A stretch of DNA of 55,663 nucleotides, from positions 1 to 55,663 of the IMG/VR virus record IMGVR_UViG_2713896798_000010; one strand, 5' to 3'. The stretch is from a virus (Duplodnaviria; Heunggongvirae; Uroviricota; Caudoviricetes). Within the stretch, counting starts at the first letter, position 1, and each line of letters begins with the position of its first letter. Position numbers: made by a program. Positions 44,601-47,600 of the stretch are shown here, piece by piece.

Positions 44601-47600
44601 TTTCCCTCGTTTTGAGGGATGTCCCTCATTTTAGGGGAACCTCCCTCGTTTTGAGGGATGCACCATTCTGAGATGTTTTTATTTGGTCCAAACATGCCGC
44701 CTTGCTGCTTGATAATATTCATTCTGACGAGTTCTAACTTGGCTTCATTGCACCGTTTGACAGGTAACTTTGTAATCTCGCTAAGTTGAGAATCGGTGAT
44801 TCTGTCCATTGGTTTATTCCACCCATAGGTTTTACGCAGAATGGCAAGCAGCACTTTAAACTGTCGCTTGGTCAGATCTGCGCCTGAATAAGCCTCAATC
44901 AGCATATTTGATAGTCTGGCGTAACCATCATCGAGATCTGCCACATTACGCTCCTGTTCGGCAAAGTTACCTCTGCCGAAGTTGAGTATTTTTGCTGTAT
45001 TTGTCATAATGACTCCTGTGGATTGATCCAGTAATTCCCTCAGAATTGCATATCAATTTGCTTAGAGTCCCCGGCGGCCACCGGGGATTTTTTCTTTGTG
45101 ATTTCATCAAGCGCATACTTAAAAGCCCTGCTAATCGGACTGATGTCTGATGCCATTCCGAAAGCACACAAGACCGAAGCAATAAATCTCCAGTCCGTTC
45201 TGCTTATCTTCGATTCATGACAGCCAATCATCTTTGCCAGACCGCGCTGGGTAAGCGTTGACAGGTTGATGAGTAAATCAGTTTCAGCGCGATCAATTTC
45301 TCGCTGTGATAGTTTGCTGTAACTTGTTTGTGACATTTGTTAATTTTCCTATATTGATATGGGGTTAAGCGGCAATCCCCAATGGGTTTGCCACTGATGT
45401 TTGCTCACCCTGTTAGAGGTGAACGACCAGCAATGTTAAAGAGCGGTGTTACTTATTCAGCCTGGTTCGGATGAGGAAACAGGTGCGGTAAGTCCGGGCG
45501 AATTTCGTAAGCCTTAACCTGACCATTGGTGGCATTAACGATAGCGAAAACTTTTTCAGGAGAAACTTTTCCGCCTCGCAACCATTTATGAACAGCGGGC
45601 TGTGATACGCCGCAATCAGCTGCAAGTCGTTTTTGACTGCCAACAATATTCAAGGCTCGCTGAATCACTAAATTCATGAGCATACCTCTACAGCAAATAA
45701 AGCATAACCAAAAATAACATGAGTTATACACCAGAGCAATAACAATTGTTGTTTTACTTTTGATAACCGTGGTTATAGATTACAGGTATGAAAACATTCG
45801 CAGAAAGACTAAATGCCGCCATGAGTTCAGCCGGGTTGTCACAAGCACAACTTGCAGACATGGTGGGGGTATCACAACCAGCCATACAAAAGATGTCATC
45901 TGGTAAAACAACCGGATCACGTAAAATGGTCGAATTAGCCAACGCGTTAAGAGTTCGCCCTGAATGGCTAAGCTCTGGTATAGGGTCAATGAGACCACAG
46001 AGCGCAGAAGAGCCATCTAATGCTCGGGAATCATCTTTAAAAGCTATCGCCTGGGATGATCATCAAAATGATAATGACGAATTTGTTGCGCTCCCCCTTC
46101 TAAATATTTCACTTTCAGCTGGCGGAGGAAGTTGTGCATTGGAGGAGTCCGCAGAATTCTCTCTAGTTTTTAGGCGCTATTACCTGAAAAAAATGGGAGT
46201 TCCAGAAAAAGCGGCAAAGTTGGTCAGGGTTGTTGGGCAAAGCATGGAGCCAACACTCCATGATGGTGATGTGGTGGGGGTAAACACGCAAGATACGAGC
46301 ATCAGGGATGGTAAAACATATGCAATTTGCCAAGCTGATTTGTTAAGGGTAAAAACGCTCATAGCCACGCCAACATCGGTAATTATCAGATCGATAAACC
46401 GCGAAGAGTATCCTGATGAAGTAATGAACAGAGAAGAATTCTACAAAAACGTAAGAATCATAGGGCGAGTGTTCTGGTCATCACATAGCTGGTAATCAGA
46501 CTCCAACTGAACTTTTGCTATAAGAACACTCACGAAGAACGGCCTTTTATTGTGCTCAATACCACCGATGGTAAACCATTCGCCAAGTAGCCAATTCATA
46601 AAATGCCATTTCTAAATCCCCCGGCTCCAGTGCCGGGTTTTATTTACTTAATTACACAGTCGCATATCCTGAAGTAACACATCTATAGCTAACTTCACAG
46701 CGAGATCATCCAATTCATCATGGTGAAGCACTCGGATCATTCCCGCAATAGCATCTGCTGAAATAGCTTCCCCAGTAGCAATAACCTCAAGCAACGCCCC
46801 CCCTAGAATTTCGACTACCCGCTGGTGCAACACACCAAATTCCCCTTCGATTAACATGCAATCACCCATAACAATCAGCCTTTCCCCCTTGAAAATATCA
46901 CGCGGATACCACAAAAAATAAAATATTTTTGTTATCAGTCATTTATAATGTTTTTCATAAAATGATAAATATAGTTATTGCACAACCAGATAACTTAGGT
47001 TATCTTCAATTCAACAGCAGGACGCTGGAAGCCAAACGGAACAGATTGGCCGGCTCTTTAACATTGATGGACTCTCAACCTAACCGTTGAGACCAAAATC
47101 TAAGTGGTTTTGGGGATGACGAGAATTTCAGTTGCAAGGCCGCGATCGAGAAGAAAAACACCTCGACGCGTCATACACCAAAGCCACTTAAAGGAGACCA
47201 TCATGGTAACCGTAATCTGGAAAGAATCCAAAGGTACGGCAAAAAGCCGCTATAAAGCTCGCAGGGAAGAACTTATTGCAGAGCGGCGCAGTAGTGAAAG
47301 ACTGACACGGAAGATTGCGCTAAAGATCTCTGGTTGCGTCAGAGCAGACAAAGCAGTATCACTCAGCAGCCTTCGCAACAAGAAGGCAGAAGAAGTCGAG
47401 CGAAAAAACAGAAGTACTTATTACAAGGATTCAAACCCATTAGGAAACAAAATACATGCAGTTCAAAAAATAAAATTGTACAGTAAACCACCGTATGGAC
47501 TTATTGAGTATGCTTATGGTGAAAAAGACTATTTATGTTAATCCTAATCGCGGACAAAACAGAAAAGTATCTGACAGAAGCCTTACATCTCGAGACAGAA

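Follow-up and report, generated by a model that had tools for sequence, protein, structure and literature searches.

In a 55,663-nucleotide stretch of viral DNA (IMG/VR record IMGVR_UViG_2713896798_000010; "the window" denotes this whole stretch), the early control region of a lambdoid prophage is very probably of lambda type and composed of two exchangeable modules: a cI/cro pair with five operators, and an N antiterminator with N utilisation (nut) sites of phage 21 specificity. Positions 43000-50000 correspond to the early region, which is reversed in the window, and the gene order across the window is cII-nutR-cro-OR-cI-OL-nutL-N, where OR and OL are the right and left operator regions. Judged by its sequence, this is the standard region that governs the choice of lysis or lysogeny in a lambdoid prophage of the Shiga-toxin type, in reverse orientation.

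Two nut sites of the phage 21 type

The elements of the antitermination module are the following.

45431-45445, minus strand: nutR boxA (CGCTCTTTAACA core at 45434-45445 plus the shared TTG), exact match, aligned with TGCTCTTTAACA, the nutR boxA of the phage 21 immunity region (imm21)
45403-45424, minus strand: nutR boxB, GUUCACCU-CUAACA-GGGUGAGC, 8-bp stem with two G-U pairs, predicted energy -10.0 kcal/mol, z = -4.1
47052-47066, plus strand: nutL boxA (GGCTCTTTAACA core at 47052-47063), core identical in the nutL of imm21, VT1-Sakai and HK629
47073-47092, plus strand: nutL boxB, UCUCAAC-CUAACC-GUUGAGA, perfect 7-bp stem, predicted energy -7.3 kcal/mol, z = -5.8
47203-47541, plus strand: N antiterminator, 112 amino acids, phage-21-type arginine-rich motif ESKGTAKSRYKARREELIAERR (match to 1NYB; phrog_271, N-like)

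The 15-nt boxA motif CGCTCTTTAACATTG is present as an exact copy at 45431-45445 (minus strand) and with one mismatch, as GGCTCTTTAACATTG, at 47052-47066 (plus strand). No other match with two or fewer mismatches was found in the window (chance expectation 0.11), no shuffled sequence out of 100 gave two matches, and the 11-nt core GCTCTTTAACA has exact copies only at nutL and nutR. The original prediction of a boxA core common to the two sites is thus confirmed, these being its sole close matches in 55.7 kb. At each site a boxA of the lambdoid consensus CGCTCTT(T)A lies upstream of boxB on the transcribed strand, with a gap of 6 nt from the shared 15-nt motif to the hairpin. One nut site is located between the leftward promoter (PL) and N, and the other between cro and cII, the nutR boxA beginning 7 nt past the cro stop codon.

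Both hairpins have the 6-8 bp stem of phage 21 boxB, nutL with the CUAACC loop and nutR with a CUAACA variant. Their stems share no sequence and are both paired, while the loops agree at five of six positions. The perfect nutL hairpin that had been described was borne out by a 7-bp stem of -7.3 kcal/mol. The description of the nutR stem as weaker was wrong, as this stem has 8 bp and -10.0 kcal/mol versus the -7.3 kcal/mol of nutL, and the start coordinate of 45405 given for it cuts off its outer pairs, the true edge being 45403. An Rfam search of 43000-50000 matched no nut or boxB family. In that search the cIII thermoregulator alone exceeded the gathering score, as a Lambda_thermo RNA element at 48965-49023 (plus strand; 88.5 bits, E = 3e-21).

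The N protein is 74% identical to imm21 N overall. Its residues 8-29, which form the arginine-rich motif expected of a cognate N, are identical at 21 of 22 positions to chain A of PDB 1NYB, the phage 21 N peptide, and one A to E change falls within this RNA-binding motif. By sequence, both nut sites are of the phage 21 type, because their boxB elements are identical to, or align with, those of imm21 and VT1-Sakai and the N motif matches. The assignment of the two sites as nutL and nutR holds on position, sequence and cognate N.

Phage 21 has the same boxA core, nutL boxB and nutR boxB stem as the window, places its nut sites in the same positions (after PL and before N; after cro and before cII), and also shares the leader of PL and the hairpin that precedes N. 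In the imm21 of Lambda h434 imm21, nutL reads GGCTCTTTAACA...TCTCAACCTAACCGTTGAGA and nutR reads TGCTCTTTAACA...TTCACCTCTAACCGGGTGAG. VT1-Sakai carries the same boxB sequences as imm21, annotated as N-utilisation sites. Alignment of the window with imm21 and with VT1-Sakai extends over the stretch between the starts of PL and N and over that between cro and cII. The window differs from phage 21 in the nutR loop (CUAACA versus CUAACC), in a nutR stem one pair longer, and in the C-terminal third of N, which is different and makes the protein longer (112 versus 99 amino acids). Between its nut sites phage 21 has unrelated immunity genes, and the imm21 DNA between cro and cI has AT-rich TTAAG/CTTAA-type repeats, which we take to be P22-like operators, in place of the window's operators. 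Nut sites of the phage 21 type were reportedly described by Franklin in 1985. The C to A change in the nutR loop and the A to E change in N might conceivably be a co-adapted pair that moves N-boxB specificity away from that of phage 21.

A broad boxA...CTAAC pattern scan of viral contigs returned mostly unrelated loci before filtering; the hairpin-forming matches left afterwards, from the scan, from loci already retrieved and from the window, numbered 41. All except one of these fall into two unrelated stem classes, both of them paired and with the loop kept. Five of the 41 have the CUAACA loop. That CUAACC is found in 35 of 40 phage-21-type hairpins, and that the loop is the one difference from the imm21 nutR, could be taken as a sign that nutR is a decayed, non-functional relic, with nutL alone working and rightward read-through achieved by other means. 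We regard such decay as very unlikely. The nutR boxA is a perfect match, and its stem is intact, extended to 8 bp and lowest in predicted energy of the four hairpins folded; the CUAACA loop also occurs in the nutR of phage HK629, whose complete genome was deposited as a phage isolate, and is seen in both boxA contexts among the viral contigs; and the stretch from nutR to cII is conserved with imm21 throughout.

Coupled changes of nut type and N in related prophages

The reading of nutL and nutR as two targets of one N protein was compared with the situation in four related prophages of the window's immunity type, namely SH2026Stx1, two E. coli prophages and FDAARGOS_944. SH2026Stx1 has a boxB loop of the GACAA type at both nutL and nutR, and its N carries the motif GNAKTRRHERRRKLAIERD; we take this loop and motif to be of the P22 type. 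The two E. coli prophages have a third boxB type, CCCGCCGAAAUGCGGG, at both nut sites. No boxA or nut site was found in the scan of FDAARGOS_944, the N gene of which is annotated as a partial pseudogene. Thus nutL and nutR, although at least 1.6 kb apart and flanking the immunity genes, change together in the loci that have nut sites, and in SH2026Stx1 the N motif changes along with them. Joint change of nutL, nutR and N is what would be expected if both sites are targets of the same N. The elements, their positions, their homology and their co-variation with N type and with repressor type are all direct observations.

Five putative operators shared by OR and OL

The elements of the repressor module are the following (bit scores and ranks refer to the matrix described below).

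45453-45677, minus strand: cro, 74 amino acids, helix-turn-helix (HTH) protein with recognition helix SQPAVHKW (Pfam YdaS_toxin/HTH_3/P22_Cro, phrog_35)
45714-45727, no strand: OR1, ATAACATGAGTTAT, exact; 19.1 bits, rank 2 of 55,650; position kept in the four relatives; present in Table S5 of PMC4587872
45739-45752, no strand: OR2, ATAACAATTGTTGT, one mismatch, the weakest; 10.0 bits, rank 10; 25 bp from OR1 and 24 from OR3
45763-45776, no strand: OR3, ATAACCGTGGTTAT, exact; 18.1 bits, rank 3; ATAACCGTAGTTAT in relatives
45788-46495, plus strand: cI repressor, 235 amino acids, 434-like HTH and LexA-type S24 self-cleavage domain (Pfam HTH_3, Peptidase_S24)
46965-46978, no strand: OL2, ATAAATATAGTTAT, one mismatch; 16.2 bits, rank 4; ATAAA left half kept in all relatives
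46990-47003, no strand: OL1, ATAACTTAGGTTAT, exact; 23.1 bits, rank 1; centre ATAACCTGGGTTAT, CTAA or CTAG in relatives

The putative operators follow a 14-bp pattern, ATAAC-N4-GTTAT, and form a set of repeated, two-fold symmetric sites common to OR and OL: three (OR1-OR3) lie about 24 bp apart between the divergent cro and cI genes, where they overlap the predicted rightward promoter (PR) and the promoter for repressor maintenance (PRM), and two (OL2 and OL1) lie over PL. The window has three exact copies of ATAACNNNNGTTAT, at 45714, 45763 and 46990, and copies with a single mismatch at 45739 and 46965; the other 54 kb hold just two more copies with a single mismatch. Within OR, successive sites are 25 and 24 bp apart, and the two OL sites are 25 bp apart. 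When a weight matrix built from the four relatives only, with the window left out, was used to rank 55,650 window positions, OL1, OR1, OR3 and OL2 took the top four places and OR2 the tenth.

All four relatives have three OR and two OL sites with unchanged spacing, and all keep the ATAAC/GTTAT half-sites while the central 4 bp differ. The palindrome AACAATTGTT within OR2 is incidental, because the relatives carry ATAACCTTTGTTAT at this position; both it and the outer AG/CT of OL1 vary among the relatives, and the 14-bp register is conserved. The ATAAC/GTTAT palindromes of the original prediction are therefore real, but there are five sites rather than three. Its list correctly held OR3 and also OL1, the latter with two extra flanking bases, whereas its remaining entry, AACAATTGTT, is only a palindrome inside OR2, and the list lacked OR1 and OL2. 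Its proposal that shared half-sites define this immunity type gains support from the half-sites kept in the relatives and from their near-unchanged recognition helices.

The repressor genes show the expected pairing of a repressor that joins an HTH at its N terminus to a LexA/S24 self-cleavage domain at its C terminus, and a small HTH Cro, annotated in phage PA28 as repressor/Cro. Over the HTH, Cro and the N-terminal domain of cI are 35% identical; both have GVSQPA(I/V) there, and in both the recognition helix begins with SQPA(I/V). In the four relatives cI and Cro are 85% identical to those of the window; the cI recognition helix, SQPAIQKMSSG, is the same in all four, and the Cro helix shows one S to T change, (S/T)QPAVHKW.

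Phage 434 is among the closest known systems: its solved repressor and Cro domains are nearest in sequence to the cI N-terminal domain and Cro of the window, its operators are likewise of 14 bp and two-fold symmetric, and it too has three sites between divergent PR and PRM. The solved structures nearest to the cI N-terminal domain are those of 434 repressor and 434 Cro, which fits a 14-bp operator. Compared with 434, sequence identity is confined to the HTH domain, two clear OL sites are found in the window, and the half-site is ATAAC rather than the ACAA of 434 operators. Phage 933W, an Shiga toxin (Stx) phage with the same replication-gene neighbourhood, also has five operators (three OR and two OL), but these are of 15 bp with a different half-site. 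Immunity of the 933W type, prompted by a PA28 annotation ("Cro of BP-933W"), was rejected, as cI is 31% identical over 68 residues and Cro 41% over 29, and the 15-bp operators differ. Immunity of the BAA2326 / O104:H4 type was also rejected on different operators and layout.

The repressor of the BAA2326 Stx phage footprints weakly symmetric sites that could not be predicted by inspection of the sequence (PMC5977221), and this precedent raises the alternative that the ATAAC-N4-GTTAT palindromes are bound by Cro only, or by another factor, with the CI sites being different and less symmetric. The likelihood of this appears to us slight, and somewhat below even that of a decayed nutR. The palindromes sit at PR/PRM and PL in the geometry of repression, their half-sites are invariant where the cI recognition helix is invariant although the surrounding DNA falls to about 79% identity, cI and Cro have the same recognition-helix start, and OR and OL have no further repeated motif in common. 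The alternative that the motifs arose by chance in AT-rich regulatory DNA, for which one could cite a comparable matrix match in AT-rich intergenic DNA outside the immunity region (at 3119; 12.9-15.5 bits), is effectively refuted by the shuffles, in which the boxA pair never arose, by the clustering of all exact operator matches at two promoters with regular spacing, by the matrix ranking, and by the homologous elements in the relatives and in many other phages.

Two operator-like sequences were noted besides the five sites. An extra ATAAC half-site falls in the predicted leader of PR, at 45704-45708 and at a distance of 10 bp from OR1, and is invariant in all five loci; as a full site it scores 6.7 bits (rank 28). 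Outside the immunity region, the strongest operator-like match is the one mentioned above, ACAAAATAAGTTAT at 3119-3132, which lies between two minus-strand open reading frames (ORFs) and is probably a chance match.

Predicted promoters and the geometry of repression

Three promoters were predicted around the operators.

45711-45739, minus strand: putative PR, -35 TTGCTC (45739-45734), 17-nt spacer, -10 TATTTT (45716-45711)
45753-45781, plus strand: putative PRM, -35 TTTACT (45753-45758), 17-nt spacer, -10 TAGATT (45776-45781); conserved in relatives
46978-47006, plus strand: putative PL, -35 TTGCAC (46978-46983), 17-nt spacer, -10 TATCTT (47001-47006)

PR and PL have the same geometry relative to O1 and O2: O1 fills the spacer and extends over three bases into the -10 hexamer, and the last base of O2 coincides with the first of the -35 hexamer. 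The relatives have TTGCTA/TATCTT in the PR columns. The columns of the PL -35 read TTGACC in imm21, VT1-Sakai and SH2026Stx1, and the major leftward promoter of VT1-Sakai is annotated there. The PRM -35 abuts OR2, its -10 overlaps OR3, and the cI ATG is 6 nt downstream. As this ATG is only 6 nt beyond the predicted -10, the cI mRNA is probably leaderless. Lambda PRM likewise has the -10 hexamer TAGATT and gives a leaderless cI mRNA.

Four points weigh against the two-module reading. The hexamers of PR, PL and PRM are weak and fall below the threshold of a strict consensus scan; the fit of OR2 to the matrix is moderate at 10 bits; a third OL site was sought and none was convincing, so a lambda-like OL3-OR3 loop cannot be assumed; and the one-base change in the nutR loop relative to phage 21 and the A to E change in N may affect affinity.

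The OL side

A third operator at OL, as would be needed for OL-OR looping through OL3, was sought with the relatives-only matrix. The window has two clear sites, and the best candidates for a third were at 46922 (4.9 bits, rank 49) and 46945 (3.1 bits); the relatives likewise show two OL sites. Six putative operators were tabulated in silico for the PST3 phage PA28 by Yin et al. 2015 (PMC4587872, Table S5). Five of them are the reverse complements of the five sites in the window, with OR and OL labels that appear interchanged relative to gene order, and the sixth, given there as third on the PL side, is ATAAATGACTGAT. The latter corresponds to 46934-46946 (minus strand) and has a single recognisable half-site. 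This published candidate and those at 46922 and 46945 all score 4.9 bits or less and none has two half-sites, although weak extra sites at OL may exist.

Lambda uses an OL3-OR3 loop to cap repressor synthesis. It is conceivable, though we would not favour it, that genuinely no more than two OL operators exist in this immunity type, both in the window and in the four relatives, and that it lacks such a loop, which together with the weak OR2 would alter the repressor set-point and the induction threshold. A two-OL arrangement would be in line with a suggestion of the Koudelka group, made for 933W and BAA2326, that in Stx prophages the amount of repressor is lowered by alternative strategies of repressor binding.

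Upstream of OL2, a 40-bp AT-rich block (46913-46950; AAAAATAAAATA...GTTATC...TTATAA) is kept in all relatives despite differing neighbour genes. The isolated half-sites in it, GTTAT and ATAA(T/C), are in the "wrong" orientation relative to each other. Between cI and OL there is a small antisense ORF (46648-46914, minus strand; phrog_3946, no Pfam match), any promoter of which would fall inside the OL region. The four related prophages have no ORF in this orientation, and other genes are in its place.

A working model of early control

Binding, promoter use and antitermination would follow the paradigms of lambda, 434 and phage 21. By analogy with these, cI dimers would bind the five operators, occupancy of OR1 and OR2 blocking PR and that of OL1 and OL2 blocking PL. 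As OR2 abuts the PRM -35 and OR3 overlaps its -10, cI would first activate and later limit its own, probably leaderless, transcript. Cro, with a near-identical recognition helix, would use the same sites in lytic growth. Once PL and PR are active, their transcripts are predicted to carry a CGCUCUUUAACA-like boxA, the 6-nt gap and a boxB with the CUAAC(C/A) hexaloop. N would then bind boxB through its arginine-rich motif, NusB/S10 would bind boxA, and NusA and NusG would join, so that the modified RNA polymerase could pass terminators into cII-O-P on one side and into the recombination genes on the other. Candidate intrinsic terminators are found downstream at 48553-48574 (plus strand), 48929-48948 (plus strand) and 43058-43035 (minus strand).

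Neighbouring genes and RNA elements

Two further genes complete the rightward side.

44069-45007, minus strand: O
45040-45336, minus strand: cII

Within O, TCCCTC-N-GAGGGA-type repeats at 44540-44650, which gave spurious weak snoRNA matches in Rfam, are presumably replication-origin iterons like those annotated in 933W. At the 5' end of cII, TTGC-N6-TTGT (45314-45327, plus strand) matches the CII-binding site annotated in VT1-Sakai (TTGCTGTAGCTTGC), and this is likely to be the region of the repressor establishment promoter, PRE. A candidate oop-like antisense RNA (44982-45091, plus strand) has a promoter-like TTGAGT-17-CATAAT with an upstream TG and ends in a strong terminator (11-bp stem and T run) within the 3' end of cII; an oop-like RNA is annotated at the same place in HK629.

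On the leftward side, the N leader is predicted to form a long hairpin at 47101-47190 (plus strand; -35.5 kcal/mol, z = -4.1), downstream of the nutL boxB and ahead of the ribosome-binding site of N. This hairpin is conserved in VT1-Sakai and imm21, and in SH2026Stx1 compensatory changes maintain the pairing. By analogy, it resembles the N leader of lambda that is processed by RNase III.

Downstream, the window encodes a full-length homologue of Nun, the HK022 protein of transcription termination and lambda exclusion (47516-47848, plus strand; 110 amino acids). Aligned by eye, it is about 90% identical to HK022 Nun and its RNA-binding motif, SRDRRRIARWEKRIAYAL, is intact. The gene begins within the 3' end of N, and the prophage thus carries both a phage-21-type N and Nun. 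The RefSeq entry of PA28 annotates just the last 45 amino acids of this homologue. When lambda-type boxB sequences were sought in the window as possible targets of its own Nun, none was found beyond chance. About 125 bp directly upstream of HK022 nun closely resemble the 3' third of the window N gene (about 90% at the protein level, comparing window 47398-47560 with about 1490-1670 of the HK022 locus L126), and farther upstream the two are unrelated; HK022 thus seems, from this alignment, to keep a remnant of a phage-21-like N gene ahead of nun.

Distribution and significance

Positions 45300-47250 are 100% identical at the nucleotide level to ten Stx1a-converting phages (Stx1_9793 and others) and 99.9% identical to four further records, among them PA28, a PST3 Stx2a phage whose immunity region is near-identical to that of the window. 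Among 5,426 complete E. coli genomes, 50 contain OR and cI at 95% identity or more, and a further 113 at about 79%. Literature searches for exact matches to six operator sequences found no paper dealing with phage operators and no experimental study of these sites. The region is already known: its kind is textbook, its sequence is deposited, and its operators were published as putative in 2015.

The significance of the assignment lies chiefly in annotation, and it raises no new question. Placing the prophage in the PA28/PST3 immunity group, with the N/nut specificity of phage 21, would allow predictions as to its homo-immunity with co-resident prophages and its cross-activation by other N proteins. 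As repressor control sets the induction of Shiga-toxin phages, the layout of three OR and two OL operators with a weak OR2 may be useful for induction models of strains that carry such prophages.

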